From contig JBAXLW010000002.1 of assembly GCA_037134575.1 (NCBI GenBank), positions 5,181-69,180 on the forward strand: a DNA stretch of 64,000 bases, read 5' to 3'. Source of the DNA: Verrucomicrobiota bacterium (lineage in GTDB: Bacteria > Verrucomicrobiota > Verrucomicrobiia > Verrucomicrobiales > Akkermansiaceae). The notes beneath the pieces are model-generated. The model saw only the letters and a list, made by a program, of their open reading frames with translations, did not search any database and had not been told where the DNA came from. Shown here in pieces: positions 2,390 through 21,792 of the stretch (the stretch's first letter is position 1; every line of letters begins with the position of its first letter). Position numbers and translations under genes: made by a program.

Positions 2390-3412
2390 TTACTCACCAG
2401 CGTCGTCGATCAATTCTGGGACGTAGACACGGCGGAGGGGGAGGACGCTCTTGTAGCGGGAGTCAAATTTTTCGTAGTGCTGAAAGATCAGGTCCACAAG
2501 TTCTTCGCCGTCAATGAGGCGGAGGTTGGCTTTGCTTTGTTCAAAGTTGCGGCACTGGGGCGAATAGGTGCCGAGGGTGAAGAAGAGGCCGTATTCACCG
2601 GCGGAGAGTTTGCCAAAGAGAGCGGAGACGTCCTTGTCGGTGATGGTGCCATCGCCGCTCTTGACCTGAACTTTGATGATCGGCGGTTCGATGCCGAGGT
2701 GGTCTTTGTGGGCGATGACATCGACACTGGGTTCGTTCTTGCGAGCGAGGCGGGCTTGATAGCCCATGCATTCGAGGAGGTGTTTGACGAAGCTCTCCAT
2801 TGGCAGGCCTTTCAATTCTTGGGAGAGACGCTTGAGGACAAAGTCGCGGGTGGTTTCCTCGATGTCGGCCGCGACGTTGGGGATAGTTAGATCTTCGGAA
2901 ACCAGCGGTGCAACTGCCTTGCCTTCGAGCGCTGCCCGGAATTCGTCGGCGTAGGTTTTAACTTGGAAAAAACTAAGGGCACTTCCGATTTCGTAGAGCG
3001 CGCCTTGAGTGAAGAGGGTTCGTTCGACAGTTTTTAGCCATTTCACCTTCCGAACGTGTGGATAGTTTTCGACAGCATCCGGTCGATATTCGTAAGGACC
3101 GCAAATGGTGCCGATGTGGATCTTCCGTTCATGTTTATGTGGGAACACAAGCAAATCACCTTCCTTCATCTCGTGAGCGAATCGGAAAAGCTGTCCGGCA
3201 TTGTTGGGTATCGCTCCCGGTTTCTTGTTGGGATAGGCCTTTGCAACCGCAGCCTTGAAGGCATCACGGTTCGGACCTAGCTTGGAAAGATCACCCATGG
3301 AATGCCAGCCGAGGGCGACACAGTTCTTGGATAGGAACATTGACGCCGCGTCTCCGGTCTTGCCAGCGTGGATGCCCCATATGGGGGTGTTGGAGGTGAT
3401 GGGTAGTTTCAT
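2390..3412 (-). CDS. mrr: Mrr-family type IV restriction endonuclease
   Basis: C-terminal Mrr_cat-like PD-(D/E)XK motif DVIAHKD...IIKVQVKSG and LRLIDGEELVDL. N-terminal IWGIHAG...VALGW sensor-like domain typical of long Mrr homologues. Confidence 0.85.
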   Translation of the reverse strand: MKLPITSNTPIWGIHAGKTGDAASMFLSKNCVALGWHSMGDLSKLGPNRDAFKAAVAKAYPNKKPGAIPNNAGQLFRFAHEMKEGDLLVFPHKHERKIHIGTICGPYEYRPDAVENYPHVRKVKWLKTVERTLFTQGALYEIGSALSFFQVKTYADEFRAALEGKAVAPLVSEDLTIPNVAADIEETTRDFVLKRLSQELKGLPMESFVKHLLECMGYQARLARKNEPSVDVIAHKDHLGIEPPIIKVQVKSGDGTITDKDVSALFGKLSAGEYGLFFTLGTYSPQCRNFEQSKANLRLIDGEELVDLIFQHYEKFDSRYKSVLPLRRVYVPELIDDAGE

Positions 3413-3469: not shown

Positions 3470-5521
3470 TCAGTCCACCAATGCCTTCAGCAGAGCATCC
3501 CGCGCATCCAAGTAATAGAGGATGGTGATCTTCGCCGCCATGTCGTCTGGCAGGTCGTTCAACTGCCGGCGACTGCTGATGGGCATCAGGATGCTTTGGG
3601 CACCTTTCTCGACGGCGATTTCGACGGCGGATACCGGGTTGAAGATCGTCTCGATGGAGCCGCCCAGATTCAGCCCACCGGTGACCATGAGGCCGCCCTT
3701 GATGCTTTTTTGGAGAAGCGATGAGCACAGAGCCAGCAGCACACCAACGCCGACGCCAGCACCACTTTTGGCACTGTCGAATGCCCGCAGTTGCACGGAG
3801 AACTCGTGCTGCCGGGGGTCGCGATCACCGACGAGTTCCTTGGCGCGGACGTAAAGGTTTTGCTCGGCGCAGCGCACGCTTTCTTTGAAAGACGGCGGAG
3901 CTGGCTGGTTCAAGATCTTCACACCGCTGCCCGGGCCTTCCGTGATATCTACCCGATAGAGACCGGGATTCTCTTCTCCCCCACCTGGCGACATTACCCA
4001 TACCTGCCCGGGCGGCAACGGGTCGGTGCCGATGCTGTCCTCGCTGTAAAGCTCGGGCGTGGATACGAATTTCTCCACACCTTCCTCGCCCAGCGTGTAG
4101 CTGAACTGGGTGTTGCGGAATTCTGCGGAGCCGATGCGCTTCTGCTGCTCCTTGACACGGCGGCGGCACTCCAAGCCAATGCGCAGCGCCCATTCCAAGA
4201 CTTCATCCGAGACCGGAACCTCTGGGTTTGGTGAGACGAGTTTGATGAGGCCGCTTACCGTCTTCATCACGCCGGTCGTATCGCGGCCGCTGAGTGCTCC
4301 ACCGAGATGAACACGCCCTGTTATTACACTCTGGCGGCTCTGGCGTCTCAGCTGATTCCAGCATTCCGACAGGTAGTCGCTGACGAGGCCGAAGCGGTTG
4401 GTCAGCAATTCCCGGCTGACCTTCGGCACGTCCCAGCCGGGGAGGTAGGCGTGAATACGATCCATGAATGCGGTGTCGTCACGCATCTCCGCCGGCATTG
4501 GCCCGAACAAGTGACCGATGCGCTGCTGGTGCTGCACGTCCACATCGAAGTTACCGACCATGACCATTCCGCCATCCGCGCGAATGCTTTCCTTGCCACG
4601 GCTGAACTCACCGGACTCCATATAGCCCTTCATGATGTTCACGCCGTCCTTCTGGTCGAAGGAGACTCCGGAAATCTCGTCGAAGCAGACCACATCGTAT
4701 TGGCAGACCAATCCGCGCTGGCCGTTACCGTTATTGACGAACATCCGTGCCACCGAGGATTTGCCGCCGGAGACGAGGTGCGCATACGGAGAAATTTGTT
4801 GGAAAAGATGGCTCTTGCCGGTGCCCCGAGGCCCCAGTTCCACTACGTTATAGTTCCGCTCTACGAAAGGCACCATGCGAAGAAGGATCATATCGCGGCC
4901 TCGCGGTGTGAGTTTCTCCGGCTCCATGCCGATGCTCCGGATCAGGAAATCCTTCCATTCTTCCGTGGAGAAAGCCTCCCGCCCTGCATAGAGGGTCGGG
5001 AGCACCTCGCGCTTGGAGAGCTGGATCTCGCGCATGGATTCGATGCCAAACGGGCGAGGTGGCTTTTCCTGCGCGATCATCGGGTCGTAGGACAGTTCCA
5101 CTTCTGCATAGAAGCCGCCTGTTAGCATCCGCTCGTTGGCGTGGACCATCGCCTCGCTGATCCTCACATCCTTGAGCTGCAAACTCGGCAGCGTTGCGAG
5201 AAATGAGTCCGTTCCCGAATCAAGCCTGGCCGTGATGATGTCGATCAGTTTCACGTGCCCCTTGTCCTTGGCGCGTGCCTTGAACAGTTCGTGTTCCCCG
5301 GCACGGATGGTCTTTTCGCCCAGCTGCCGCTCTACGATCTTTAGCCCCTCCGCGATTTCCTCCTCGTCCACCGAGGAGCAGTAGCGGCCTAGCAAGAACT
5401 CGGCGACGTAGGTCGGGACGGGATATTGTCCTTTGAATTTCCGCACCAGGTCTTTGCGGACCACATAGCCTTCAAAGGCTTTGGTGGCGATTTGGTCGAT
5501 TGTATCCAGTGGTTCGCTCAT
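3470..5521 (-). CDS. brxL: BREX Lon-like AAA+ protein BrxL
   Basis: Walker A ELGPRGTGKSH, Walker B VCFDEIS, DTAFMDRIH and a C-terminal Lon-like domain in which the Ser/Lys dyad positions appear substituted. Start set at MSEPLD (5521), 4 nt after the pglZ stop. Confidence 0.9.
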   Translation of the reverse strand: MSEPLDTIDQIATKAFEGYVVRKDLVRKFKGQYPVPTYVAEFLLGRYCSSVDEEEIAEGLKIVERQLGEKTIRAGEHELFKARAKDKGHVKLIDIITARLDSGTDSFLATLPSLQLKDVRISEAMVHANERMLTGGFYAEVELSYDPMIAQEKPPRPFGIESMREIQLSKREVLPTLYAGREAFSTEEWKDFLIRSIGMEPEKLTPRGRDMILLRMVPFVERNYNVVELGPRGTGKSHLFQQISPYAHLVSGGKSSVARMFVNNGNGQRGLVCQYDVVCFDEISGVSFDQKDGVNIMKGYMESGEFSRGKESIRADGGMVMVGNFDVDVQHQQRIGHLFGPMPAEMRDDTAFMDRIHAYLPGWDVPKVSRELLTNRFGLVSDYLSECWNQLRRQSRQSVITGRVHLGGALSGRDTTGVMKTVSGLIKLVSPNPEVPVSDEVLEWALRIGLECRRRVKEQQKRIGSAEFRNTQFSYTLGEEGVEKFVSTPELYSEDSIGTDPLPPGQVWVMSPGGGEENPGLYRVDITEGPGSGVKILNQPAPPSFKESVRCAEQNLYVRAKELVGDRDPRQHEFSVQLRAFDSAKSGAGVGVGVLLALCSSLLQKSIKGGLMVTGGLNLGGSIETIFNPVSAVEIAVEKGAQSILMPISSRRQLNDLPDDMAAKITILYYLDARDALLKALVD

Positions 5522-5525
5522 AAAT

Positions 5526-7853
5526 TTATTCTCCAAGGGTAGTGGGTAGGGAATCAATCACCTTTCCTGACGGATCCAACAAAACGATTTCAGCTTGCCT
5601 GCCAATGTCAGCGTCGTCTTCGAGGAAGATGGAAACCTTTCCGTCCGGTTTCACTTTCTGCGCCTGATGATTGGCCAGCAGCGAGGTTTCAGGATCAGCT
5701 TGTAGCGTGCGGACATCCACAGAAAAACCGGCCGCCTGTTCGCTCACGGTGACTCGACAGTTGGCGTTCCCCCATTTTGCGCCCAACAACTTGGCAACAT
5801 TCCCAGACACGCCGCCACTGTTGGAAACGCGTAGAATCGGGGTGACCATTTCCTGGAGCGAGACGCCGCCGTGAGTGTATTCCATAGAGGCACGGAAGCA
5901 GCCGACACCCGGAGGGCTGGCGATGACGACATCCTCGTTCCAGTGCCATTTGAGTGTAGGCACATCGGTCTGTGAATCCGACTTCATCGCGGCGCAGCGT
6001 CCCCAGCGGTGATCCGCCAGACCTGACTTAAGTTCCACCTTGGGAAGACCTCCGGGGAGGAGGAGCCAGCCGTGGTCGGTCACCACGATCAACTCTGTCC
6101 AGCCAGCCTTCAGGAGAGCACCGATGCGGCTCGCTAGATCGCGCACTTCTGATTCCACGCTGCGGGCTAGTTTCCAGCCCTCGTTATGGCCGCGCTTGTC
6201 GAGGGAGCCGGCTTCCGTCCACGCAGAGCCAGATGGTTCACCGGTCTCGCCGGGCTTTAGGAACTGCCATCCACTCTCCCGGAGGGCGGTGATGAACCTG
6301 TCGTGCGTAAGAGGCTTATCGGTGCCGATCAAACGTGTGGTGAACGCATCACCTAAATCCGCACCCTGCACCTTGTCCGCGAGGGGTGAGGCTGCGGGCT
6401 TGGCGGTGGCAGTGACGGAAGGGATCGAGGACCACTCCCAGTCCTGCGCGGAGTCGATGCCGGCGCTTGCCAGTTCCTTTGCCAGGAGTTGGGCGACATC
6501 CATGCGCAGACCGTCGGCAAACAGGAGCAAACGTCCCGGGGCGGTGACATACGGCTTGGTAAGCTTCGAGACCGTCTGCCCGTCGGCGCGGATCAGTTGC
6601 TGGAGTTGTCGGGCGGTGTCTTCCAGCCATGGGAGATAAACAGCCCGCAGCGCGCCCAGCAGGGAGCCGTGCTGCTCCTGGGTTCCGCAGGCTGCCATTG
6701 CGGCGAGAGCAGCGGCGTCCACTTGCCAGCCTACATGAGCGTATTGCTCGGCATAGGCATGGGAGCTTGCCGCTCCGGGGACGGTTTGGCACGCTTTTGC
6801 CAGTTTCGCGAGCGGTTCGAGAGCTGTTGCCAACGGACTCAGGTCGAGTTTCTGCCAAGCATAAGCGCGGCGCTTGCCATGTTGCTGTTCCAGCGCTGCG
6901 ATACCTTTAGCCGCCTCATGCTGGGGCAGATCGACGAGTTTGGTAAGGGCCTGCTGCAGCATCCTCTCCTCCCGTTCGTTGAGATCCGGCCAGACTTCGG
7001 CGGTGTCGAACATCTGCGGGTCTTTTGGTGCCGCGCGCTTCAGCCATTCCACGATCCCGGCATAGTTCGCCGGCGCTTCCACAAAACGCTGCCAGGCCTT
7101 TTTCCAAGAATCCCCTCTACCGGCAAGCAGCTGCGCAGCCTTGAGCGGCCCCTCCTTGACGGGATCAAAACGGAAATCCGTTTTGCACTGTTGGCAGAAG
7201 GCTTTCCACTCCGCCTCCGAACCGCGTTTCTGGAATCCATCCGGATCGCTCAGCCAGCGCAGCAGCAGGCCGGTGGCATCCGGGGCTACAGTGCCGTTGA
7301 AAAACTCCGCATCCAGCCGCCGGCCGCGCAGTTGGGTAATAGGTCCGTCCAACAAGGTGGGCAGCGCTCCGGCCAGCGCGTCGAGCGTCTGCTGGTCCTT
7401 TGCCACATCGAGTTCTAGGCCGCCGTGTTTAGAAACAAGGAACCCATAGGGTGTCCACTCCTTGCCATTCACATGCAGCCACACCACACCGCGATACTGG
7501 AGTTCCACCAGTGCGGCGAGTTCCTGCGGGCAATCCTCCGCCGCACGCAGTTTATCGCGACTGATGCCGGGTAGGTAAAAAATTGGCACCGTGCCTGCGG
7601 GTGGCGCGCCATCCACAGACCGCGCTTCGATGCAGCGCAGCCACAATGCCGGGCCGCTGCGTTTTTCAGCGTCGTAGTCTCCCAGCACGAACAACTCGGG
7701 CACCAGCGCCTGGACTTGTGGCATGATGGATTCCCATAAGCGCTCGGGATCGGGCCAGAGCACGGCGCACGGCGCTACCTGATCACCGGGTGCGAATGCG
7801 TGCGCCATGTTGCGCAAGGCGGCTGTTAGGGTCTGTCCGAGTGTCTGGTTCAT
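5526..7853 (-). CDS. pglZ: BREX PglZ-domain phosphatase/nuclease (type B-like)
   Basis: Alkaline-phosphatase-fold motifs LFADGLRMD, SLDKRGH, VVTDHG, YTHGGVSLQE; BREX gene context. Confidence 0.9.
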   Translation of the reverse strand: MNQTLGQTLTAALRNMAHAFAPGDQVAPCAVLWPDPERLWESIMPQVQALVPELFVLGDYDAEKRSGPALWLRCIEARSVDGAPPAGTVPIFYLPGISRDKLRAAEDCPQELAALVELQYRGVVWLHVNGKEWTPYGFLVSKHGGLELDVAKDQQTLDALAGALPTLLDGPITQLRGRRLDAEFFNGTVAPDATGLLLRWLSDPDGFQKRGSEAEWKAFCQQCKTDFRFDPVKEGPLKAAQLLAGRGDSWKKAWQRFVEAPANYAGIVEWLKRAAPKDPQMFDTAEVWPDLNEREERMLQQALTKLVDLPQHEAAKGIAALEQQHGKRRAYAWQKLDLSPLATALEPLAKLAKACQTVPGAASSHAYAEQYAHVGWQVDAAALAAMAACGTQEQHGSLLGALRAVYLPWLEDTARQLQQLIRADGQTVSKLTKPYVTAPGRLLLFADGLRMDVAQLLAKELASAGIDSAQDWEWSSIPSVTATAKPAASPLADKVQGADLGDAFTTRLIGTDKPLTHDRFITALRESGWQFLKPGETGEPSGSAWTEAGSLDKRGHNEGWKLARSVESEVRDLASRIGALLKAGWTELIVVTDHGWLLLPGGLPKVELKSGLADHRWGRCAAMKSDSQTDVPTLKWHWNEDVVIASPPGVGCFRASMEYTHGGVSLQEMVTPILRVSNSGGVSGNVAKLLGAKWGNANCRVTVSEQAAGFSVDVRTLQADPETSLLANHQAQKVKPDGKVSIFLEDDADIGRQAEIVLLDPSGKVIDSLPTTLGE

Positions 7854-7863
7854 GCTATTTCAG

Positions 7864-10800
7864 TTACTTGCCGCTTAAGTTATGGAGTTGGAATGCATCT
7901 ACCCCTAGCGATTCCCTGCAAAGGTCAACTAGGTGTTCGTGGTGCGTGAAAAGGAAAATCTGCGTGCGTTTGGATAGGTCAGCGAGCTGCGGCAGGATGG
8001 CTTTGGTTCGGTCGTTGTCGAAGGTGATCAAAAGGTCATCCAGAATAAGTGGCATGGGTTCGTGTTCCTCCAAATGCCGGTCCAGTGCTGCCAGACGAAG
8101 AGCAAGGTAGAGTTGGTCACGAGTACCCTCGCTCATACCTTCAACTGCCACGGATGTCCCGCCCGGCCTGCGGCCTGCCAGCACCGGGACATCCTGATCA
8201 TTGAACTCGGCCGCCAAGCCCTCGAAGGCACCTTGTGTGATCTGCCGGAAGACCTCCCCGGACTTCTCCAGTAAAGGTGCCTGATTTTGTTCTCGGAATT
8301 GTTCGATCTGGTTCCTCAAAAACTGCGCGGACAAGCGTAACCGCATGAATTGGGCGGCATCCCGCCCCAAAGTTGCCAACTCGGATTCCGCCTGCTGCCG
8401 CAAATCGGCCGCAGCGTCTCCGGCTTTGGCCATCTCGTCACGTTGCCGGTTCAGCTCGGTCAACCCGGCTTGGACTACTTGGATCTCTGGCCTCTTGTCC
8501 AACAGGTTTACTTCCAGACGCGCTTTGCGTTGAGAGAGGTCATCAGCGTTTTCCGCTTGGACAAGACGAACAAACTCCTCCACTGACTGCCCCCTTGCCA
8601 AGCCTCCCAAGGTGTCCCGGATGTTTTTGAGCCGTTCCTCGATTGCCGCTTTTTTCTCCAGAGCAGCAAGCAATCGCTCCAGTTCCTCAATGGCGCTGAT
8701 TTTCGCAAGGGACATCAACCCGTGCAGGATTTCGGACGCATTGGTTTCTTCCTGTCGCGCGAGCGTCAGGTGAGTTTTTGCATCCTCGATCTGGGAGGAA
8801 ATCTGATCGTGCTCAGTCTGGGCTATCCGCGCTGCCGATACGACCTTCCATAAGGCAGCTTCCCGGGATTCTGTGGTTTCCGCTTCTACCCGCAGGGTGG
8901 TCGCTCGCTCGCTCACCTTATTCTCATAGTTAGCGATCAACTCTTGGGTCTTGTTCGCCTCGCCCGATAATTCCTTCCACTGATCGAATCTTGCGATTAG
9001 TGCCGCCCGTTCCTCAATTAACACTAAGCCGTTAGCAGGGGGAGTGTCGGCAGCCAAACCGGCCGACTTGCTCCGGGCCTGCCAGTTTGCGTTCGCTGCC
9101 TCGATCTCTGAGGAAATCGCAGCCGTTGTCTTGTTCAAACCCTTCAACTCGTCCCGCAGTTTCGCAAGCTGCTCGGTGATCAGCTTGCGTCGTCCAACCG
9201 TCTCCTCACCCTGCTGAAGAGATGTTTTTGCGGCTTCGTGCAGCACGGAATAGGACTTTGCCTCGGAGGTTCCCAATACCGCTTTCAGCGCAACAACGGC
9301 TCGTTGAATCTGTTCGGATTTGGAACGCAAGCCTTCTTCTGCATCGCGCAATTTTCCGAGGGTGTCCCGGAACTGAACCCAGCTTTCACGCCACTCCTCC
9401 ATCTCGTCCGGCGAGCGCGGCTGAAGGTCAGCTGGTGTCCATTCTTGCTGCCATGAAATCAGAGTCTCTGCCTTCGCCGCCTCTAACTGAGAGGCGGCCG
9501 CTTCGGTTTCTGTGATCTGATTCCGGCTGGTTAGAATTTGCATCCGCTTTTCTTCGGCCTGCGCCACTGCGTCCGCATCAAGGCGCAGTTGATCGGCGAT
9601 GTGATCTGCCGCTAAGATCGACAAGGGAAAGGCCTCTTCAAGGGGCAGCTCGGGATCCAGTTGCTCGTCAGCTCCTCCGCCTTTCCAATCCTTGAGCACC
9701 AGATGCCAACCGTGGTCCCGATGATGCCGCGCCTGGCTGAGCGATTCCTCTGTTGGCAACTCACCACGGCGCTCAAGACGTTTCAGATCATTCTCCAGCT
9801 TGGTGATGTTTGCATTCTCGTCGCGAATCTTTTTTGCGGTGGCTTGTAGGTCACGCTCCAGCTCAATGAGGCGGTCACGGAACTTCCGCAGTGTGGCTTT
9901 TGCGGGAACCTGAAGCTGTGATGCGGCTTCAAGATCCTGAGGTGCCCCATGCACCAGGGTGTGCTCGTCCTGAACTTTACGCGTCAGATTGACCACCGTG
10001 GTACGGGCGGCTTCCAGGGTTTTGTCGGCTTCCGTTGCCTCTGCGGCGACCGCCAATGCCGCTCTGAGCGGTTCCAGATCGGTTTCAGTCAGCGACTGCA
10101 ATTCGCTCTCATGCCCGTCGATCGCAGAGGTAGATTCCTCTACCTTCCCCACACTCGCCGCGTAACGTCCTTGTGCGTCGATCAAGGACTGCGCCGCAGC
10201 CTCCAAACCGAGACGGGCTGAGCTTCCCAGTCGCATGCCCTCCAGAACGTTAAAATCCCCCACGATTTCCAAACTCTCCATACCACTCAGCAAGGCCGGT
10301 TCAATGCCGGCCAGTTTGCTTTGCAGATTCGCCAAGGATTCCTTCCGCGTGCGAAAGGCACCCAAGTCCTGATGGAGGGCATCTAGCTCATCTTCGATCG
10401 CCAACACTTCCGGTACCGTCGCGCACTTGCCCAACCGCTCCTGATCTCGGGCGATCTGCGAAGCTAGGTCAGACAACTTGCGTGAAGCCTCAGCAGCCTC
10501 ATCGCGCGCGGTTCTGACGCGTTCCACAAAGTCACTCGCCACCTGCGGAAGCTCGGGCAGCTCGCGGAGCAATCGCAGCTCCTCGTTGAAACGGCTGACG
10601 GATGGCAGCGCATCCTCGCAACGGGTCATCCATCCGATGGCCACTTCGCACTCGGAAATTTCTTCGTCCAACCGGGCTTTCCGCGAGTTGTCCGCGTCAA
10701 GATTTCGGTTCAGCTCGTCCCAAACATCCGCAGCGACCACCGCCTCCCGGCTCTGTTTCAGCAGATCGAGGTAGCGTTTTACTGCCGGGCGGATAGACAC

Positions 10801-11340
10801 GTTGGCAGAGGCTCGTCCTTTGAAAAATCGCTCCGATTCCGCTTCCAAGGCATCCAGCACACGCTGAACCGGAGTGCCGCCAAGGCTCGCGGAGAAAAGC
10901 GCTTTGCCGATGTCTCCATCGCCTCCGAGAATCTGGCGCGCACCTTCGCGCAACTCGCTGCTGCCCAGCCCAAACATGGTGGAGAAAAAGCTCTGCTCAA
11001 CGTTTCCGAGAAACGGCAGAAGCGCATGGTCCGGCAAGGGATTGCCGCTCTCGTCCAGCAGGGTGTTTTTATTTCCCTTGCGCCGCTGGAAGCTCAGACG
11101 CACGCCGGCCCGGTTCGTGATCTCACCCAACAAGCGCATGTTCTTGTATTCATGCAGGAAATTGTCCGGCGACTGGCCGTGAATGCCATACAGCAAGTCC
11201 CGCGTCGCCCGCAAAAGGGAACTCTTGCCCGCTTCGTTTTTGCCGTAAAACACATGCAGGTCGTGTTCCCGGGGCGGAAACATGAGGTCGAGATTGGTGA
11301 AGGGACCGAAGGCCGGTATTTGCAAACGATCAAATCTCAT
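7864..11340 (-). CDS. yhaN: YhaN-family SMC/SbcC-like ATPase (AAA_27)
   Basis: MRFDRLQIPAFGPF start, Walker A YGKNEAGKSS, long coiled coil, signature MSEGTRDQLYLALRLA, Walker B LILDDLLITFD, H-loop FTHHEH. Start at 11340 overlaps the yhaO stop (ATGA). Confidence 0.9.
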   Translation of the reverse strand: MRFDRLQIPAFGPFTNLDLMFPPREHDLHVFYGKNEAGKSSLLRATRDLLYGIHGQSPDNFLHEYKNMRLLGEITNRAGVRLSFQRRKGNKNTLLDESGNPLPDHALLPFLGNVEQSFFSTMFGLGSSELREGARQILGGDGDIGKALFSASLGGTPVQRVLDALEAESERFFKGRASANVSIRPAVKRYLDLLKQSREAVVAADVWDELNRNLDADNSRKARLDEEISECEVAIGWMTRCEDALPSVSRFNEELRLLRELPELPQVASDFVERVRTARDEAAEASRKLSDLASQIARDQERLGKCATVPEVLAIEDELDALHQDLGAFRTRKESLANLQSKLAGIEPALLSGMESLEIVGDFNVLEGMRLGSSARLGLEAAAQSLIDAQGRYAASVGKVEESTSAIDGHESELQSLTETDLEPLRAALAVAAEATEADKTLEAARTTVVNLTRKVQDEHTLVHGAPQDLEAASQLQVPAKATLRKFRDRLIELERDLQATAKKIRDENANITKLENDLKRLERRGELPTEESLSQARHHRDHGWHLVLKDWKGGGADEQLDPELPLEEAFPLSILAADHIADQLRLDADAVAQAEEKRMQILTSRNQITETEAAASQLEAAKAETLISWQQEWTPADLQPRSPDEMEEWRESWVQFRDTLGKLRDAEEGLRSKSEQIQRAVVALKAVLGTSEAKSYSVLHEAAKTSLQQGEETVGRRKLITEQLAKLRDELKGLNKTTAAISSEIEAANANWQARSKSAGLAADTPPANGLVLIEERAALIARFDQWKELSGEANKTQELIANYENKVSERATTLRVEAETTESREAALWKVVSAARIAQTEHDQISSQIEDAKTHLTLARQEETNASEILHGLMSLAKISAIEELERLLAALEKKAAIEERLKNIRDTLGGLARGQSVEEFVRLVQAENADDLSQRKARLEVNLLDKRPEIQVVQAGLTELNRQRDEMAKAGDAAADLRQQAESELATLGRDAAQFMRLRLSAQFLRNQIEQFREQNQAPLLEKSGEVFRQITQGAFEGLAAEFNDQDVPVLAGRRPGGTSVAVEGMSEGTRDQLYLALRLAALDRHLEEHEPMPLILDDLLITFDNDRTKAILPQLADLSKRTQIFLFTHHEHLVDLCRESLGVDAFQLHNLSGK

Positions 11341-12593
11341 GCGGTGGTGTCTCCTTTCGTGCGAAGGGCTTCGAGGATGATGGCGCGCACATCTCCCATG
11401 AGTGCCGGGCGCTGGGCTGCGCTCCAATCGGTCTCGACCTCAGCCCGCAGCTCGGGCGGCAGCACATCGAGCATTTCGGTGATGTCACCGGGGAGGGCTT
11501 CCAGTTGCTGGGTGGCCTGTTCCAAGCTCTCCAGCACGGTCCTGGTCAGTGCGTCCCGCTCTGCCAGTTCACCCAGATCATAAACGGGAGAAGTGGCCAC
11601 TTTAATCTGCTCGATCCAGATGGCGTCCTCACCGAAATCCTGGGCGATGGCCTCGGTCTCCGCCCGGAAGCGCACGGTATCCCGGAGCAGGATTCCATGA
11701 AGCGGACTCGCTCCAGTCAGCACCAGCCGGGCCGCTAGTAAGCGCCCTTCGGCACTATCGATGGCCCGCGACAAGGCATCGCGGATGCGACGCAAGACTT
11801 CCGGTTCCTCTTCCAGCCCTGCGAGATCCACCTCGACCGCCGCCCAGCGCACCACATCCAAGTTGCACCAATCCGCCGACTCGACATCGAGGTGATCGTT
11901 CACGGTCACCAAGTAACATCCACGCGGGCCGGTTTCGCGAGCGTGACGCCCTTGGCAGTTGCCGGCGAAGACGATCCAGGGTTCCTCGCTGATTACCTCG
12001 GGTTGATGGATGTGTCCCAACGCCCAGTAGCCATATCCCTTCGCCTGCAAGTCCTGCACCGAACACGGGGCATAGGTGTCATGGCCGGGGCGTCCGGTTA
12101 GGCTGGTGTGGAGTAGTCCGATATTGAACATGCCTGCAACGGCCGCCGGATAGTCCTGCGCTAAATTCTCTGGCACCGCGCGGTGTGGGAATCCGCGCCC
12201 GTGGACAACGGCAGGGACGTCCGGAACCTCCTTCGTTTCCGCCGTGCGGGTGGAAAACAGCCGCACGTTGTCCGGCAGTGACAACTTTTTAGAAATGACT
12301 GAAGCGGCATCATGGTTGCCAGTGATCAGGAAAACAGGAACGCCCTGATTGTTGAGCCGGACCATCTGGCCACGGAAAAACAAACCCGTATTGTAGTCCT
12401 TCCAATCGCCATCATAGAGATCGCCCGCGATCAGGAGGAAATCGACTTTCTCCTCAATGGCCAAGGTCACCAGATTCTCAAATGCCCGGCGGGTGGCTCC
12501 ACGGAGCAGTTGCGTGGGCGCACCCTCATGCGCCTCCAACCCCCGGAGTGGGCTGTCGAGGTGGGGGTCTGCGGCGTGGATGAAGCGGAACAT
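11337..12593 (-). CDS. yhaO: YhaO-family SbcD/Mre11-like metallophosphoesterase nuclease
   Basis: FIHAADPHLD, IAGDLYD, GNHD, LLHTS, WALGHIH and AGNCQGRH motifs. Confidence 0.92.
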   Translation of the reverse strand: MFRFIHAADPHLDSPLRGLEAHEGAPTQLLRGATRRAFENLVTLAIEEKVDFLLIAGDLYDGDWKDYNTGLFFRGQMVRLNNQGVPVFLITGNHDAASVISKKLSLPDNVRLFSTRTAETKEVPDVPAVVHGRGFPHRAVPENLAQDYPAAVAGMFNIGLLHTSLTGRPGHDTYAPCSVQDLQAKGYGYWALGHIHQPEVISEEPWIVFAGNCQGRHARETGPRGCYLVTVNDHLDVESADWCNLDVVRWAAVEVDLAGLEEEPEVLRRIRDALSRAIDSAEGRLLAARLVLTGASPLHGILLRDTVRFRAETEAIAQDFGEDAIWIEQIKVATSPVYDLGELAERDALTRTVLESLEQATQQLEALPGDITEMLDVLPPELRAEVETDWSAAQRPALMGDVRAIILEALRTKGDTTA

Positions 12594-12598
12594 GGGTG

Positions 12599-13690
12599 TT
12601 AGGAAGTAATCGGAGGGGTTGGGTCTTGCAGGAGTTTCTGTTGTCGGAATCCTTCCAGCTCGCGTTCTAGCTCCTCGCGCAGCTCGGCCTCGCTGGGGAG
12701 GATGAGTTTGTATTTGGTGGCGAATAGCTTTTCGTTGCCATGAAGCACGGAATAGCGAACCACGGTTTCATCCTTGTTGGCGCAGAGGATGATGCCAACA
12801 GTCGGATCGTCCTCCGGTCCCCGCCGCTGGTCGTCGTAGAGGCGCACATACATGTCCATCTGCCCGATGTCCTGATGCGTCAGCTCGTCTGTTTTCAGAT
12901 CGAACAAAACGAAGCACTTGAGCAGGTAGTTGTAAAAAACGAGGTCGATGTAGAAATCCTTGCTCTCCGTGCTGTTGCGCTGCTGGCGGGCGACGAATGC
13001 GAAGCCCTTGCCCAGCTCCAAGAGGAAGGATTGGAGGTTATCGAGGATCGCATCTTCTAGCTTTGATTCCAGCAGGCGGCCTGTTCCCGGTAGACCAAGA
13101 AATTCCAGCATCACCGGATCACGGACGAAATCGCGGGGTGTCGGGTCCACTTCGGCGAGTTTGACATCGGCTTCAGTCAGGACGGCCTTGCGATCTTTGC
13201 TGGCGAGCAGGCGCTCATAATAAAGGGTGCTGATCTGGCGTCCGAGTTGGCGGGTGCTCCAATTTTGCTCCGCTGCTTCCTTGGCATACCACTCGCGGGC
13301 GCGCGGGTCATCAAGGCGCAGAAGAAGGCGGTAGTGGGTCCAGCTCAATTTTAGACGCAGTGCGTCTAAATTCTCAAACAGCCGGTAGAACTGAGTCATC
13401 TTGTAAAGGTTCGACGCATCAAACCCTTTTCCAAACTCCTCCGTAAGCCGCGTGGCCATTTGCACCAGAAGCCCGGCTCCATACTCGGCCCGGGTCTTGC
13501 CGCCTTGCTCGAACTCGACGATGTGCCGTCCCACTTCCCAACAGGTGCGGACTTGGACAAGATCCACCGCCCGCAGCGCTTGTTGCCGCGCTTGGACGAT
13601 GAGAGTGCGCAATTCGCCCAGCAAGGAGTCGAATCCCGGCTTGGCCCGCGGGGAGGATGGGGGTTTTGAAAGAGCGGTTTTCTTCTTCAC
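12599..13690 (-). CDS. yhcG: YhcG/DUF1016 PD-(D/E)XK nuclease
   Basis: WEVGRHIVEFEQGG, LSWTHY, RDPVMLEFLG, FLLELGKGFAFVARQ, FYIDLVFY, FDLK and DIGQMDMY motifs. Confidence 0.92.
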   Translation of the reverse strand: MKKKTALSKPPSSPRAKPGFDSLLGELRTLIVQARQQALRAVDLVQVRTCWEVGRHIVEFEQGGKTRAEYGAGLLVQMATRLTEEFGKGFDASNLYKMTQFYRLFENLDALRLKLSWTHYRLLLRLDDPRAREWYAKEAAEQNWSTRQLGRQISTLYYERLLASKDRKAVLTEADVKLAEVDPTPRDFVRDPVMLEFLGLPGTGRLLESKLEDAILDNLQSFLLELGKGFAFVARQQRNSTESKDFYIDLVFYNYLLKCFVLFDLKTDELTHQDIGQMDMYVRLYDDQRRGPEDDPTVGIILCANKDETVVRYSVLHGNEKLFATKYKLILPSEAELREELERELEGFRQQKLLQDPTPPITS

Positions 13691-16600
13691 CGGGTCGCCT
13701 CCTTCTGTGCCTTCGTTAGATGCACATCATTCACGCGATCTCCGGTGAAGGTGCTGCCTTTCCAGAACCAGGGGGACTCGGATTTTTCGCGTTGGGGTTC
13801 TTTGCCGCGGTCTTTGTCCCATTTGATGTTGGGCTTGGCGCGAAGGAGGCCGGCTCCTTTTTTGCCGCCGGGGAGGTCGGTGGTCATGAAGGGGCGGATG
13901 TTCATGCGGACGCCGTCGTTGAGGTCGGGGAGCCAGCCGATGGCCTGCTTGGAGAGCGGCTTCCAGCGGACGAAGAGGTCGTAGGGTGGTTCGCCTTCGA
14001 GGATGAGCTTGAGGCGGGTTTGGAGTAGCTTGGCGGCTTGCAGCTTGGCGTCACTGCCGGCCTCCTCAGCTTCCACGGCGGCTTGCTGGCGGCGGATCCA
14101 ATCGCCGAGGTAGGCGTAGGTGAGTTTTTCGAGGGTGGCGTGGGTGAGAGTGTGGTAGTTCACCAGCGCGCTGAAGCCGCTCTTGTGGCCGTCCCAGATG
14201 TGCCAGATGAAAGGGCGGTGGTGGAAGAGCGCGCAGTGCTGCTCGAAGAACTCGTCGCGCAGCCAGTCTTCGAGGGTTTCGGATTTACTGCCTTTCTTGC
14301 CGCCCGGGCCGGCGCTGGCGATGAGGGTGGGCAGGTCCAGCTTGCCCATGGCTTGAGCGAGCAGGGCGCGCAGGCGTTCGGCGGCGGGAGCTTCGCCTTT
14401 GGTGGCGGAGAGGCACACGATGCCATCGTCATCCGCCAACGTTTCCAAGCCATCCGGGCCGAGCGCCGGGCAATCGGGAAAACTTGAACCGGACTGGCGA
14501 GGCCACTGGTAGCCGAGCAACCGCGCCACGGCCACGTGCAACGGCTGGTCTGCACCGGCAGGGTGGCCGTTGAACAGCCATTGCGTCGGGTCGCTGGAAA
14601 ACGGCTTCGGCAATCCGTGCGGATATTTCTCCGCCGCCACCTTCTGCCAGTGCGCCAGGTCGAGGGGGACTTTGATCAATGTTGCATTCGTAACCATGAC
14701 CTTTTGATCAAGTGTTCGGACTGCGGTCGAGAAATCTGGTGAAGAGCAAAAGCACCAAAGAGCACACAAATCATCAGGTTCTCCCAGTGTTATCGCACTG
14801 ACGTTGCTGGAAAAAATCTCACCAGTATAAAGGGTGGCGGACAAGTTGCCGATTACTGAAACTGCCACACCTTTCTTTCCCCAACCAAGTTTGCCCCTAA
14901 ATGGGTTCTGTGATATTTCTGCGATTCCGCCACCGCCATCAGTCCAATACAGTATGCTTTGACGCCCACCGTAACAGTCTGTCGGGCACGATTCCTGAAT
15001 GAACTCCCACCCATTTGAGACGATTCCTATTTCCCAGAACCCTCGTCCTAGCCTCGGGTAGTCGCCTGTGGCCAAGCCTTGCCATGCGTCAGCCAACGTA
15101 GAAAGTTGTGGGCTATCTACCGAATTGGCTTGGTGGGTAATCCGACAATCAGGATTTTTTAGCTGCTCAGCCTGCCCCAGTCTTACAACCTCTGCATTCT
15201 GGAGTGCGATTGATTTCTCAATTGGACCTTTTTCATCAGCTACATCAAGTCCTGCGAACTCATGCTCTTGATTCGGCCGCCGACATTCGAGTGTGCAGAG
15301 CAAGATATTAAAGTCCCACATGGGAGTTTGAAATGCCTTTGGTCCTAACCGGGTGACAAAATTCCATGAAATATCACGAAGCAGTGTTTGCCGTAACAGC
15401 TTGTAGCTGCCGAGGGAGAGCCAATTCTGGGGCGTGACGATGGCTGTAATCCCACCGTTTGCGCAGAAGGTGAGGCATCGCTCAACAAAACAGGTAGCTA
15501 AGTCGGTTTTGGCTGTTGGATGGGCGCGTTCACAATAATCCATTAGCGTCGCCTCCTGCTTTGGCCTTCCCAAATATGGCACGTTGGTGGCGACGAGCGT
15601 GAACTGGCCGGCGAGAATTTCCGCCGCCTTGGCCAGGCCGCGCGCGGTCACGGCCATTTCATGCGCGGTGTCGTCCTTGGTCTCCTGCGCCAGCGCCTTT
15701 TCCAGCAGCGGCTGGAGTTCATGGAACGCGGCCACCAGCAAATCGCCCTCGCCGGCGCGCGGGTTGATGAGGCTGCCCAGCACCGCCGCCTTTTGGAACA
15801 GCCGGTAAAGCCGCTCCATGCCGCGCTGGAGCTTCTGGTTGTCGCCGGCAATCGCCAGCCAGTCGGCTTCGCGGGTGTTCGGCGCGAGGCCGGAGCAGGC
15901 CAGGTTCATCGCCGGCAGCTTGCAGTGGCCCACGCGCCGCCACGCGGCCAGCGCCAGGTTGAACGCGCCAATCTGCGTGCAGCGCGGGTCTATCTCCAAG
16001 CCGAAGAGGTTGTCGCGGATGACCGCCGCCACCGCCGCCGCTTCGTCCAGCTTTTCCTCGGCCAGGCGCAAGGCCACCAGCCGCTCGAACATCGCCACGA
16101 CGAAGTGGCCGCTACCCATGCAAGGGTCGAGACACTTGAGTTCCTTTGCCGTTTTCGGCCAGCCGTCAAAGGAGCCGGAGGCGGGTGTCCACTTGCCGTC
16201 CTTCTCGATAAATCGGAGATATTTCCACGGACACCCGGGGAGAGCACAGGATTGGCGGAGTTCGTCCTCGCTGGTGGCACTTTCCGCCAGCTTGGGGTTT
16301 GCGGCGAGGACTTTGCCGGCGTGCCATGCGCCGAGGGTGTTATCCAAGAGGAAGTCCACCATGTAATCCTCGGTGAACAGTTGCGTGACGGACGGCAGTT
16401 CATCCGCGCCGATCTTGTTGCCGGAGGCGTTTGACTCAATTTTTTTATCGGCCTGCCAGAACTGGTAGCACCAGCCGAGGCTGTCACCAGCAGTGAATAC
16501 ATCCCTCGGCAAATCGGTGACGAGAGCGATGAGCGGATTGCGATCCTCGACTGGCAGTTCCACTACGCCGGCCGGGTCGTCGGCGCGGAAGATCTCCGGT

Positions 16601-17025
16601 AGCTCGGCAGCGGCAAAGCGTGCGGCAACGGCCCAGGCATCCTTCAAGCCCTGGGACGGGGCGAGTTCCTCGCAGTCGTCCAGAGAGACAGCCACCCCGT
16701 GCTCCGGGGAGATAAGGAGATCGTTCGCCAGTAGATATTGGGCGAAGAGAATGCGGTGCCACTGGTCGTAGGCGAGCTTCTCCACAAGGTGAGTGATTTC
16801 GTAGCTGCCGCGTTTGGTGTGGCTCTCGCCATCGCCGAGCTGCCGTGCTTGCGCGCGGAGCCTGCGACGCAAGGTGCGCTGAGCCTCATCCATGTGCGGG
16901 TAAGGATCCGGCTCATGGACAGCGAGGGCTTTGAGGGACTTGCGCGCACCACCCGTGGCGATCTTGCGGGCCTGTTTGACGGCGCTTTCTAGCAGGCGGC
17001 GGTGAGCGGTGGTGAGAGAGTTCAT
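13687..17025 (-). CDS. pglX: BREX adenine methyltransferase PglX (Eco57I-like)
   Basis: TQLFTEDYMV, motif I LDPCMGSGHF, motif IV variant ATNVPY; located between brxC and pglZ. Confidence 0.9.
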   Translation of the reverse strand: MNSLTTAHRRLLESAVKQARKIATGGARKSLKALAVHEPDPYPHMDEAQRTLRRRLRAQARQLGDGESHTKRGSYEITHLVEKLAYDQWHRILFAQYLLANDLLISPEHGVAVSLDDCEELAPSQGLKDAWAVAARFAAAELPEIFRADDPAGVVELPVEDRNPLIALVTDLPRDVFTAGDSLGWCYQFWQADKKIESNASGNKIGADELPSVTQLFTEDYMVDFLLDNTLGAWHAGKVLAANPKLAESATSEDELRQSCALPGCPWKYLRFIEKDGKWTPASGSFDGWPKTAKELKCLDPCMGSGHFVVAMFERLVALRLAEEKLDEAAAVAAVIRDNLFGLEIDPRCTQIGAFNLALAAWRRVGHCKLPAMNLACSGLAPNTREADWLAIAGDNQKLQRGMERLYRLFQKAAVLGSLINPRAGEGDLLVAAFHELQPLLEKALAQETKDDTAHEMAVTARGLAKAAEILAGQFTLVATNVPYLGRPKQEATLMDYCERAHPTAKTDLATCFVERCLTFCANGGITAIVTPQNWLSLGSYKLLRQTLLRDISWNFVTRLGPKAFQTPMWDFNILLCTLECRRPNQEHEFAGLDVADEKGPIEKSIALQNAEVVRLGQAEQLKNPDCRITHQANSVDSPQLSTLADAWQGLATGDYPRLGRGFWEIGIVSNGWEFIQESCPTDCYGGRQSILYWTDGGGGIAEISQNPFRGKLGWGKKGVAVSVIGNLSATLYTGEIFSSNVSAITLGEPDDLCALWCFCSSPDFSTAVRTLDQKVMVTNATLIKVPLDLAHWQKVAAEKYPHGLPKPFSSDPTQWLFNGHPAGADQPLHVAVARLLGYQWPRQSGSSFPDCPALGPDGLETLADDDGIVCLSATKGEAPAAERLRALLAQAMGKLDLPTLIASAGPGGKKGSKSETLEDWLRDEFFEQHCALFHHRPFIWHIWDGHKSGFSALVNYHTLTHATLEKLTYAYLGDWIRRQQAAVEAEEAGSDAKLQAAKLLQTRLKLILEGEPPYDLFVRWKPLSKQAIGWLPDLNDGVRMNIRPFMTTDLPGGKKGAGLLRAKPNIKWDKDRGKEPQREKSESPWFWKGSTFTGDRVNDVHLTKAQKEATR

Positions 17026-17810
17026 GAAATTTGTGTCTCGATTATGGCGAGCAATTCGTTACGGGGATTGGTGGGAGATCTGTCGCGGCGGAGGTCTATA
17101 CCGAAGACGAATTGCTCTAATTTATCGGGTGCGACTTCGAGCTGGGCAGCCCAGTCGTTCATCAGCGTGACATACTCCACGTAGGCATTTGACTGGACCT
17201 CCGGATCGTTTTTCAAGCTGATGGCTTTGTATCTCGCCAGGGATGTATGTGAGGGGATCGTGAACAAATCCCGCGCTTCTTTGGTGCCTTTGGATTGGCC
17301 GCGGAGCGCGAAAAACGCGTTCGTCGTCCAACGGTCTAGAATCAAGGGCTTGGGATTCACCCGGGCGTCAGCGGCACCAACGAAGAAGAATATCTTCGTA
17401 AAGAAGCTCATTCCCACGCCCGGAATGGAGTTCTCTCCGCTGCTGCAACAACTGCGGAAAGCTTCTTCGAGCTTCCCACCCTTCACCAAATCCTGAATGC
17501 GATTCAATCGGGTAAGCAATTCAGATTCATCGACAGCGAGCACTTGCTGTAGGCGCATGTCTTTTCTGGTGTCGATGTAGCCCCAGACAAAGGTGGCCAC
17601 CGCAGCAAGAACTGGATCTGTCCATTCGGCGTAAAGTTTCACCAGATCGTCTCGTTGGAGGGAGTTCAATGGGAACGCGTGGTAAAGGCGCTGCATCTGT
17701 GGCTGCTGCCAGCTGAGATAAGCATTGCCAAATTTCGGCAATGTTTGGGCATTCAGTCCGAGAATAGCCTTTGCACGTTTTTTCAGGTATGGTGGGAGGG
17801 TAGATATCAT
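17022..17810 (-). CDS. Putative OGG-fold (HhH) DNA glycosylase-like protein
   Basis: TFVWGY, HhH-like IPGVGMSFFTKIFFF, PLILDRW and Y..YV.LM...A pattern, all resembling OGG-like proteins. 4-nt overlaps with both neighbours. Confidence 0.65.
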   Translation of the reverse strand: MISTLPPYLKKRAKAILGLNAQTLPKFGNAYLSWQQPQMQRLYHAFPLNSLQRDDLVKLYAEWTDPVLAAVATFVWGYIDTRKDMRLQQVLAVDESELLTRLNRIQDLVKGGKLEEAFRSCCSSGENSIPGVGMSFFTKIFFFVGAADARVNPKPLILDRWTTNAFFALRGQSKGTKEARDLFTIPSHTSLARYKAISLKNDPEVQSNAYVEYVTLMNDWAAQLEVAPDKLEQFVFGIDLRRDRSPTNPRNELLAIIETQIS

Positions 17811-20800: not shown

Positions 20801-21244
20801 ACGCACATTGTCCATGGAGCCGGCACCGAGTGTGCCTGCGGCCGCACGCAGACCACCCAATGGCTTGCTGCGGGTGCTGAGTTCTTTGAGCAGATCGGAA
20901 ACCTCGCTCGGAAGTTTTACCAAAGAACGGGCGGTGGCACCGTCGGCGAACTGATAGTCCTCCCACAGGTAACGCAGCACTTTGACGAGGTGGGATTTAC
21001 CGCTTCCGAAGAAACCGCTGACCCAGACGGCCTTCTGTTCCGGCTGCGCCAAGCCGTCGAGGTAAGCCTTGAGGATACGCTCCAACCCGCGCGCGTATTC
21101 GCCATCGCAGACGAAAGTTTCCAACTCGAAGCGGAGCGTCTGGATCTGGCGCGTGTCCTCCCCGATTTCGGAGACCTTGGAGACGCCATTATTGAGCAAC
21201 TCCAGGGTGGTGGGGTCACGGAAGTAAAGTTCGCGGTTTGTCAT
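17807..21244 (-). CDS. brxC: BREX P-loop ATPase BrxC
   Basis: VWVSGFFGSGKSH, LLVVDEIQQFIG, YPLLP, PYGWPQDA; 1145 aa. Confidence 0.92.
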   Translation of the reverse strand: MTNRELYFRDPTTLELLNNGVSKVSEIGEDTRQIQTLRFELETFVCDGEYARGLERILKAYLDGLAQPEQKAVWVSGFFGSGKSHLVKVLRYLWEDYQFADGATARSLVKLPSEVSDLLKELSTRSKPLGGLRAAAGTLGAGSMDNVRMAFVQLVLRSAGLPEDLAHAKFMLWLRSSGLETAVAQSLKAADCELLEEVESMNYSVPLAEALLAADPKYGTLANVQDAIRTGWPEITSPTIKQTLELLKQVYGDGTTLPCTLLVVDEIQQFIGEKIQRANDVQEIAEHCSTDLASRLLIVGTGQSALNTTPSLQRLQARFTVKVPLSDADVENVIRKTVLRKKPEQEASIAKCMEDNQGELARHLQDSRLAATHADEKFFVADYPLLPTRRRFWEKVLRNTDHSGTKAQLRSQMQIVFEATRETAAASVGTVVPADFIYDQISTDLLNSGELEREYDEIIRKLRDGTPEGDLRSSICALVFLIGKLPRTPGADDGVRANAETLVDLLVSDLKKDRPKLDQQVPVILEELVKNGQLMPVEKEFRLQTREGAVWTHDFNRRRTTALNDDERINSKRAELLRDGSKQALKPVSLKQGASNWPRKLAFELSSSRPSLSSDEVTLWLREGWSDDEKSVLNDARSAGVDSPMLFGFLPRLHHEELKQAIASQIAAQETLNSHGAANTPEAIEARKAIETHLQVAGHRIQELLGHVIAGSKVFLGGGQETNGIELADKVQDSADSAMARLFPQFSEADHGNWGVVVTKARGGDVGALAQVSFQGDVTKHAVCRRVLDLIGAGKKGKDIREAFKSTPYGWPQDAIDGALYVMLVAGNLRATVNGNPVQAQTLPQNQVGVAHYYVDVPPLNVQQRLDLKALFQKLAVTTQNGKEPEAAALFLQKLLALADSAGGEAPRPEAPSTRSVKDLQLLSGNAQLLKLHEQKDTITADLTTWKKSADAIAKRWPEWESLEVFQAFAKDLPEGVACATSIAAITSGRNLLADPDPLPELIKQLTTALRTELGKLQGDLSAAFVAGEEKLAASDLWKRLSDEQRTTLTNTFQLTPPAKAAIGTDEEILTALQARTLADRHNLLDAVPQRFARALQEASTLLEPEAVRITLPSATLHTIADLDPWFAQVRQQVEAQLKTGPVIL

Positions 21245-21792
21245 GGTGTGAGAAAACTTTCGGTGGTGGTGATCGGGGCGGCCATGTAGTTGAAGCCGTC
21301 GCGGGCGTCCATGAATCGGTAGATGTTCCCCTGGTATTCGCCGGGGAAGAGGACGAGCAGGCGGCCGGTCACGCTGTCTTCGACCCGCTCGATCAGGCTA
21401 GAGACCCGCATGTAGTCGAAGAGCGTGGCGAGGCCGGCAATGGTTACGACGCTGTTCTCATCGGATTGGGAGCAGGCTTCGCTCACGAGTTCCACAGCAC
21501 GGTCTTCCAGTTTGCTCCCGGCCTTTAAATGCTTCGGATCTTTGAAGATGGATTCACGGTATTTGTGGCTCGCGAGGTACTCTGGAAAAAGACCCGTGAG
21601 ATCGACCGTGGACCACTCGTGGCCGGCTCCAAGCGTGAGTTCCTCAAACTGTGGGAGACGGGCGCGGATGCGGCGCTCCTCCACCGGTGGATAGACAGCG
21701 AACCAGACACGCTGTTTCCCGGCGACGTTCCCGGACCACGGCAGGCTGACCTGGCGGGAGTAGTTGGCGAGGAGTCGGTCGATGGCATTCAT
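21241..21792 (-). CDS. brxB: BREX protein BrxB (DUF1788-like)
   Basis: Size, position directly upstream of brxC, and LLVLFPGEY...YRFMDARDGFNYMA C-terminus. Confidence 0.75.
   Translation of the reverse strand: MNAIDRLLANYSRQVSLPWSGNVAGKQRVWFAVYPPVEERRIRARLPQFEELTLGAGHEWSTVDLTGLFPEYLASHKYRESIFKDPKHLKAGSKLEDRAVELVSEACSQSDENSVVTIAGLATLFDYMRVSSLIERVEDSVTGRLLVLFPGEYQGNIYRFMDARDGFNYMAAPITTTESFLTP

Follow-up and report, generated by a model that had tools for sequence, protein, structure and literature searches.

The closest described relatives of the gene pair considered here are SbcE and SbcF (YhaN and YhaO) of Bacillus subtilis, which have been implicated in double-strand-break repair and in competence and transformation (PMC2811018). 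Within bacteriophage exclusion (BREX) systems, a survey of January 2026 describes back-up or auxiliary nucleases embedded in the operon, of the PD-(D/E)XK, HNH/GmrSD, OLD-ABC with TOPRIM, HKD, HEPN, Schlafen and PIN types, and proposes an auxiliary-effector model in which nicks signal to auxiliary effectors (PMC12839542). The core protein PglZ has itself been reported to be a metal-dependent, nickase-type nuclease (PMC12205998). BREX arrests phage without obvious DNA degradation, and the recent view is one of nicking by PglZ with optional embedded nucleases as a second layer. Here we describe a stretch of 64,000 nucleotides (nt; hereafter the window) from a Verrucomicrobiota bacterium of the Akkermansiaceae (assembly GCA_037134575.1, contig JBAXLW010000002.1), in which the pglX-pglZ interval of a complete type 1 BREX operon holds a yhaO-like and a yhaN-like gene. 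We favour, with moderate confidence, the reading that the pair encodes an autonomous SbcEF-type nuclease which has repeatedly been captured as BREX cargo and probably serves as an auxiliary, second-line nuclease beside BREX. The pair is a good candidate for such a nuclease and may have a role in defence.

All six BREX core genes lie on a single strand (minus, 3470-22598) in the order brxA-brxB-brxC, pglX, pglZ type B and brxL, with strong full-length PADLOC matches, and the minus strand from brxA through an Mrr-type endonuclease gene forms a single gene array without interruption (2390-22598; Table 1). Four extra, tightly coupled genes are set into this operon, one, OGG-like, between brxC and pglX, and three, yhcG, yhaO and yhaN, between pglX and pglZ, which respectively form the upstream and downstream borders of a cargo slot. 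A 5-nt gap, a 4-nt overlap and a 10-nt gap had been proposed for the yhcG-yhaO-yhaN-pglZ junctions from the sequence alone, and reading of the minus strand confirms each of them. Between the yhcG stop codon (TAA) and the yhaO ATG at 12593 there are 5 nt (caccc), the yhaO stop shares 4 nt with the yhaN start (ATGA, 11340-11337), and 10 nt separate the yhaN TAA (7866-7864) from the pglZ ATG at 7853, such that positions 7864-12593 comprise exactly yhaN plus yhaO. At the upstream border the pglX stop and the GTG start of yhcG also share 4 nt (GTGA, 13690-13687). A longer version of yhaN, beginning at a TTG at 11427, was ruled out and the ATG at 11340 was taken as its start because the Pfam AAA_27 profile and all homologues begin there; the start of brxL is uncertain, the family match beginning at residue 17 of a TTG-started open reading frame (ORF). 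In a scan of the region, promoter-like and terminator-like sites were no commoner than in shuffled sequence, and the single 10/12 promoter-like site within yhcG (13377-13348) is not counted as evidence. The gene layout agrees with the earlier claim that the pair is operonic with BREX, and yhaO and yhaN are probably transcribed and translated together with it.

The YhaO-like protein has a complete set of metal-binding motifs I-V (DPH9-11 (D9xH11), GD57-58, GNHD92-95, H162 and GHIH193-196), of which GNH[DE], GHxH and DxH are kept in 71/71 YhaO-YhaN pairs. Its AlphaFold2 model (mean predicted local distance difference test score, pLDDT, 84.8) shows the Mre11 fold, with a nuclease domain plus a capping domain, and the top 50 Foldseek matches of this model in the PDB were all Mre11/SbcD proteins (E 5e-15 to 1e-10; target-normalised template modelling score ≤0.73). 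By sequence, the SbcD/Mre11 matches in NCBIfam and PDB are weak and lie below the curated cut-offs (45.6 bits for TIGR00619, cut-off 77.65; 35-45 bits for the Mre11 equivalogs, cut-offs 500-600), and for this reason we regard YhaO as a distant relative and not as a canonical SbcD. On its motifs and modelled structure, YhaO is an Mre11/SbcD-fold metallophosphoesterase and the predicted nuclease subunit of the pair.

The YhaN-like protein carries the motifs of a split ATPase head, namely a Walker A (G33KNEAGKS), a signature (S1070EGTRDQ), a Walker B (LILDD1102) and an H-loop (FLFTHH1134), and its AlphaFold2 model places ~850 helical residues (about 183-1034) between two head lobes, which is the split ABC head and long coiled coil of Rad50/SbcC. 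The family profile matches the Rad50 C-terminal lobe in the PDB (E 4e-5), the Foldseek matches of the model include SMC, Smc5/6, MukB, Wadjet JetC and Rad50, and close relatives carry the NCBI name 'YhaN family protein'. No CxxC zinc hook is present in the window YhaN, whose only cysteines are at 231, 241, 306 and 1141, and a CxxC of any kind occurs in just 1/71 YhaN homologues; the family has a conserved central block (alignment residues ~538-556). The model and the motifs together identify YhaN as an SMC/Rad50-like ABC ATPase without a zinc hook, and the sequence-only reading of the pair as an Mre11/SbcD-like protein with a Rad50/SMC-like partner is upheld by the motifs, the Rad50 profile match and the structural matches.

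In B. subtilis, as in the window, the SbcD-like metallophosphoesterase gene lies directly upstream of the long SMC-like ATPase gene, and SbcE resembles YhaN in its AAA_27-type N-terminal head, in the long heptad regions that surround a conserved central block and in its lack of a CxxC (PMC2811018). Since SbcF-SbcE are described with the same gene order and central block and likewise lack the hook, the window pair can be placed as Mre11-Rad50-like of the SbcEF type and not as a canonical SbcCD, its likeness to the Bacillus proteins being one of described features. The settings differ, in that sbcF-sbcE are chromosomal housekeeping genes of Firmicutes, whereas the pair described here occurs sporadically, as an accessory unit, in Gram-negative phyla and in the window lies in a phage-defence operon.

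We surveyed one genome per species and obtained 80 species-level YhaO-YhaN loci, with ORFs taken as simple longest-ORF calls; most of the loci are from metagenome-assembled genomes and short contigs, and some of those called stand-alone could be truncated BREX loci. Nine of the 80 (~11%) lie in a BREX-1B operon, compared with a random-position expectation that we roughly estimate at ~0.02-0.03%. The pair is directly or nearly upstream of pglZ in seven of these nine (L002, L007, L018, L021, L034, L070 and L081); L024, from the Bacteroidota, is a variant in which it directly follows brxC, and L069 is a BREX locus in decay. A reverse scan starting from PglZ added two more (L105 and L122), and the survey, the scan and close metagenomic relatives together give at least 17 BREX loci that have the pair just ahead of pglZ, the named genomes among them being from the Verrucomicrobiota, the Chromatiaceae and the Thermodesulfobacteriota. 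The arrangement might, as the earlier reading allowed, have been unique to this genome, and the synteny survey, which spans several phyla, shows that it is not. Flanking by core genes and recurrence across taxa, the features by which BREX-embedded nuclease cargo is recognized in the 2026 survey (PMC12839542), are thus both found here. Across the survey yhaO and yhaN are adjacent, the only exceptions being two Desulfobacterales loci (L038, 8276-10001; L041, 7678-10001) in which they are ~1.7-2.3 kb apart.

The close metagenomic relatives of the window's YhaN are mostly in the same slot. At 92% identity, two independent assemblies of one relative (P0001) have the order brxB-brxC-OGG-pglX-yhcG-yhaO-yhaN-pglZ-brxL, as in the window, and a third, shorter contig has a gene upstream of yhaN, yhaN, pglZ and brxL in that order; because the order is identical in independent assemblies, the arrangement is not an assembly artefact, and a chimeric assembly was ruled out. 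A relative at 84% identity (P0002) has pglX, a gene for a 596-amino-acid (aa) protein, an OLD/TOPRIM gene, yhaO, yhaN, a gene for a 378-aa protein, yhcG and pglZ. At 76% (P0004) an OLD/TOPRIM gene precedes yhaO and yhaN, probably in the slot, although the contig then ends. Three relatives at 72% have yhaO, yhaN and pglZ (P0005), a patatin gene, an AEP-like gene, DUF8426, yhaO, yhaN, yhcG and pglZ (P0007), or the pair flanked on both sides by yhcG (P0008), two at 70% are stand-alone (P0009 and P0010), and one at 66% has OLD/TOPRIM, yhaO, yhaN, yhcG and pglZ (P0011). The subclade of at least 66% identity is BREX-resident in 8-9 of 11 cases, with variable cargo around the pair.

The pglX-pglZ junction receives many other genes. 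Among 54 related BREX-1B loci in which the 3' end of pglX and the 5' end of pglZ can both be seen, pglX abuts pglZ (gap ≤201 nt) in 28, and the remaining 26 hold cargo of 0.74-6.6 kb. This cargo includes YhcG/PDC-S02 (nine loci), PDC-M61A/B (six or seven), Schlafen AlbA_2 with HATPase_c_4 (three), GmrSD type IV enzymes (three), DUF932 (three), Bro-N/PDC-S13 (two) and a Ppl-like ABC ATPase, and most of it consists of known or candidate defence genes. YhaO-YhaN is rare in the slot (2/80 metagenomic loci). YhcG is the most frequent cargo of the slot and, within BREX, usually adjoins the pair, being found beside it in 11/13 informative BREX loci as against 9/52 BREX loci without the pair, although the loci are not phylogenetically independent. 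In L018 and L034 a PDDEXK_4 gene lies beside the pair, with a remnant of yhcG in L018, and OLD-TOPRIM, patatin and TIR genes adjoin the pair in other loci. An OLD-family ABC ATPase-TOPRIM nuclease gene directly precedes yhaO in three related loci (L168, 6814-8733; L171, 1562-3508; L172, 240-2408), which suggests that the slot gathers nuclease modules next to one another.

Several further features of these slots were observed. The two-gene candidate system PDC-M61A/B (~495 + 560 aa, no Pfam domains) is frequent in the slot and usually followed by YhcG (L108, L131, L144, L090, L142 and L154). A 596-aa protein without a Pfam or PADLOC match is encoded directly after pglX in two pair-bearing BREX loci (L168, 4984-6774; L002, 969-2759), and in L168 a further uncharacterised gene (378 aa) separates yhaN from yhcG and a TIR_2 gene is found upstream of pglX. 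In L169 (1-4637) the cargo array is preceded by a tandem of full-length pglX-type methyltransferase genes (1149 and 1155 aa). In L090 the slot is already filled by PDC-M61A/B and YhcG, and a second, distant YhaO/YhaN-type pair (14568-18619; 44% and 35% identity) lies immediately downstream of brxL in the BREX-1B locus, with a split Metallophos gene (270 + 149 aa) and an AAA_27 protein of 929 aa; it adds a further independent link between the wider YhaO/YhaN family and BREX.

Phylogenetic trees, built by a quick method, indicate that the pair entered BREX more than once. On the YhaO+YhaN tree the BREX label falls at six places, at least five of these changes being forced by well-supported branches, and each BREX-embedded row lies within a set of stand-alone copies from its own phylum; the BREX-borne pair of Lamprocystis, for example, is next to the pairs of Thiorhodococcus and Thiocystis, which are not in BREX. 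On the PglZ tree six gains or losses are required to account for the carriers of the pair, at least four of them forced by well-supported branches. As reconstructed from these trees, the slot appears to have captured the pair repeatedly, at several independent events (at least 4-5). A defined BREX subtype is rejected because the carriers are polyphyletic on both trees and rare. The sequence-only reading had proposed a BREX subtype with an SMC-nuclease as effector or back-up, and of this proposal the back-up idea fits the framework of auxiliary BREX nucleases set out in PMC12839542, whereas the subtype falls, the carriers being polyphyletic, the slot general and the homologues mostly stand-alone.

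The same trees bear on whether the pair is a genuine BREX-coupled effector, in essence what the sequence-only reading proposed, in which YhaO-YhaN would dock physically or functionally on PglZ, BrxB or BrxC and turn PglZ nicks or stalled forks on unmethylated phage DNA into double-strand breaks, followed by resection. If so, these BREX loci would act by DNA destruction. The tight coupling to pglZ across the 10-nt gap, the constant placing of the pair directly or almost directly ahead of pglZ and in the BREX orientation, and its retention in BREX over 66-92% identity while other cargo turned over are all in keeping with such a role, as are the reported nuclease activity of PglZ (PMC12205998) and the signalling from nicks to auxiliary effectors proposed in the 2026 survey (PMC12839542). 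However, embedded and stand-alone copies interleave with short branches (e.g. L007 with L048 and L012), and hence no BREX-specific adaptation is visible. Moreover, only 2/80 related metagenomic BREX loci have the pair and close BREX relatives do without it, many unrelated autonomous systems occupy the same slot, and the excess of BREX-1B in genomes with stand-alone pairs comes alongside a similar excess of other PglZ systems, measured against an unmatched background. We therefore consider a coupled effector unlikely, and it is the interleaving of embedded and stand-alone copies that leads us to favour an autonomous module over a BREX subunit.

At the other extreme the pair might be a neutral hitch-hiker, an ordinary accessory repair pair that settled in a recombination-prone slot and contributes to neither defence nor BREX. 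A slot that takes many kinds of gene, including those for DUF932 and Bro-N proteins, and a family that is mostly stand-alone are what this would predict. Yet the pair was captured independently at this one slot at least 4-5 times, every embedded copy keeps all catalytic motifs intact and is tightly coupled, a diverged BREX-resident subclade has retained the pair throughout, and its enrichment over a random position is several hundred-fold by our own rough estimate. Mere hitch-hiking thus seems very improbable.

A number of observations weigh against the reading of the pair as an auxiliary nuclease of defence. About 85% of its species-level loci are stand-alone among ordinary genes, the neighbours being highly varied and including efflux pumps, glycosidases, regulators and metabolic genes: the directly flanking genes of all 80 loci hold 121 Pfam families in 136 ORFs, and the flanks of 36 stand-alone pairs 126 Pfam families among 134 ORFs. 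Defence-like helicases adjoin only 3-4 of these 36, the defence-like neighbours being a DpdF-like helicase (L030), SNF2 helicases (L044) and WYL with HKD-Snf2 (L064), and by guilt-by-association the YhaO-YhaN family, taken as a whole, does not qualify as a defence family. BREX-1B occurs elsewhere in 7/50 genomes with stand-alone pairs as against 7/400 in a phylum background, and other PglZ systems in 15/50 as against 26/401, the background being unmatched for genome size and phylum; these figures may reflect genomes rich in defence genes in general more than a tie to BREX in particular. PADLOC v2 holds no real match for YhaO or YhaN; YhaN has weak matches to LmuB (36 bits on the coiled coil, with no significant stretch) and, over the Walker A region, to PbeC, PtuA and AriA, and YhaO has one to 'Effector' (24.7 bits). 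The sole studied relative, SbcEF, works in double-strand-break repair and transformation (PMC2811018). Canonical SbcD was not found in the window genome, which has a single copy of the pair, and for that reason the pair could double as a repair enzyme.

Another reading is a host-protective repair module, which would mend double-strand breaks or collapsed forks caused in the host chromosome by PglZ, YhcG, the OGG-like protein or other cargo, for instance right after horizontal transfer, with methylation still incomplete. The repair function of SbcE/SbcF in B. subtilis (PMC2811018), the near-constant presence of a PD-(D/E)XK nuclease beside the pair in BREX (the 11/13 against 9/52 given above, in loci that are not phylogenetically independent), the missing SbcD and the housekeeping surroundings of most family members would all be accommodated. 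Such a module would lower the toxicity of the island and ease its transfer, and repair cargo of this kind would give a defence island its own damage control. Every other identified occupant of the slot, however, is an offensive defence gene, genomes of the same genus manage without any YhaN, and the stand-alone pairs have no nuclease partner to offset, which makes a repair module distinctly unlikely. No homologue was present in the 16 listed same-genus genomes and only 15/151 genomes of the window's family have one, at 27-34% identity, so the pair is accessory in this lineage. Among the genomes with stand-alone pairs, G162 and G186 have PglZ-1B genes broken into two or three frames and look like decaying BREX loci, as does L069.

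Under the favoured reading, yhaO-yhaN is predicted to encode a self-contained Mre11-Rad50-class complex of the SbcF/SbcE type, in which an ATP-driven YhaN carries the YhaO nuclease. A YhaO2-YhaN2 complex would bind DNA ends, hairpins and blocked or nicked intermediates and cut them with ATP. Inside BREX it would act as an auxiliary nuclease on phage DNA, either after recognition or stalling by BREX or alone on linear incoming phage DNA, and we infer that the pair gains from co-expression and co-transfer with BREX. A bolder version, which we find quite doubtful, is that SbcEF-type complexes are dedicated anti-foreign-DNA nucleases, which in BREX, once PglZ has nicked phage DNA or a fork has stalled, would act as the missing 'executioner' and resect that DNA, making up a three-part cutting and resection unit with a PD-(D/E)XK endonuclease such as YhcG. 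That version, just as doubtful here, would also have the stand-alone copies police incoming linear DNA and not chiefly repair the chromosome, as Bacillus SbcEF might perhaps do at the competence pole.

The neighbouring genes of the operon are listed in Table 1. The OGG-like gene overlaps both brxC and pglX by 4 nt. As it is kept in the 92%-identical relative (L166 and L167) and missing from more distant pair-bearing BREX loci such as L081, it marks a second cargo position in the same operon, between brxC and pglX. Directly downstream of brxL is the Mrr_cat restriction endonuclease gene, followed by a minus-strand gene at 3-1955 whose product joins a weak Swt1-like HEPN match to an Hsp70-type ATPase; with these two genes the defence island extends past BREX.

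Table 1. Genes of the BREX operon in the window and the endonuclease gene that follows it, from the upstream end of the array.
Gene	Position	Strand	Length (aa)	Matches and assignment
brxA	21789-22598	-	269	PADLOC BrxA 3.6e-81
brxB	21241-21792	-	183	PADLOC BrxB match
brxC	17807-21244	-	1145	PADLOC BrxC 1309 bits
OGG-like glycosylase-fold gene	17022-17810	-	262	Pfam PF21790 OGG 1.5e-30
pglX	13687-17025	-	1112	BREX methyltransferase; PADLOC PglX 1475 bits; Pfam Eco57I, N6_Mtase
yhcG	12599-13690	-	363	DUF1016_N + YhcG PD-(D/E)XK nuclease domain; PADLOC candidate PDC-S02
yhaO-like	11337-12593	-	418	Pfam Metallophos; predicted Mre11/SbcD-fold metallophosphoesterase
yhaN-like	7864-11340	-	1158	Pfam AAA_27 4.3e-65; predicted SbcE-type SMC/Rad50-like ABC ATPase
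pglZ	5526-7853	-	775	BREX-1 type B; PADLOC PglZ 901 bits; NCBIfam BREX_PglZ_1_B 858 bits (cut-off 400)
brxL	3470-5557	-		Lon-like ATPase/protease, last BREX core gene; PADLOC BrxL match
Mrr-type endonuclease gene	2390-3412	-		Mrr_cat domain; unannotated N-terminal domain

With SbcCD and Mre11-Rad50 the pair shares the Mre11/SbcD fold with all metal ligands in YhaO, and the split ABC head, the long coiled coil and the Rad50-matching C-lobe in YhaN; it differs from them in the lack of a zinc hook and the different central region of YhaN, and in the scores of YhaO far under the curated cut-offs. Like LmuB of Lamassu and JetC of Wadjet, YhaN is a long coiled-coil ABC ATPase coupled to a nuclease, which could sense DNA ends or topology, but the window has no LmuA/LmuC or JetA/B/D partners and the nuclease is Mre11-like and not Cap4, Mrr or Toprim. 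Membership of a known defence system (Lamassu, PARIS, Septu, Gabija, Pbe and others) was ruled out, the PADLOC v2 matches being short or weak and the partner genes absent. With the BREX-embedded nucleases of the 2026 survey, such as GmrSD/BrxU, PARIS-like OLD-ABC + TOPRIM, PD-(D/E)XK, Schlafen and HEPN, YhaO-YhaN shares a same-strand place within the core operon, the organization as an ATPase + nuclease unit, an optional and patchy occurrence, and the same slot families (PMC12839542). The text of that survey and its accessible supplements make no mention of an Mre11/Rad50-type module (a calcineurin-like phosphoesterase with an SMC-like ATPase), and nothing specific was found in the literature on BREX and YhaN or on Mre11/Rad50-like anti-phage systems. 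Embedded BREX nucleases as such are already published, and the Mre11/Rad50-type pair would be a new addition to the class. Lying beside pglZ, it is a concrete candidate for the second layer of BREX. If the favoured reading is correct, it would provide the first functional context for the YhaN/SbcE family outside the Firmicutes and would bring a new protein class to bacterial immunity, beside the SMC-based Lamassu and Wadjet systems.

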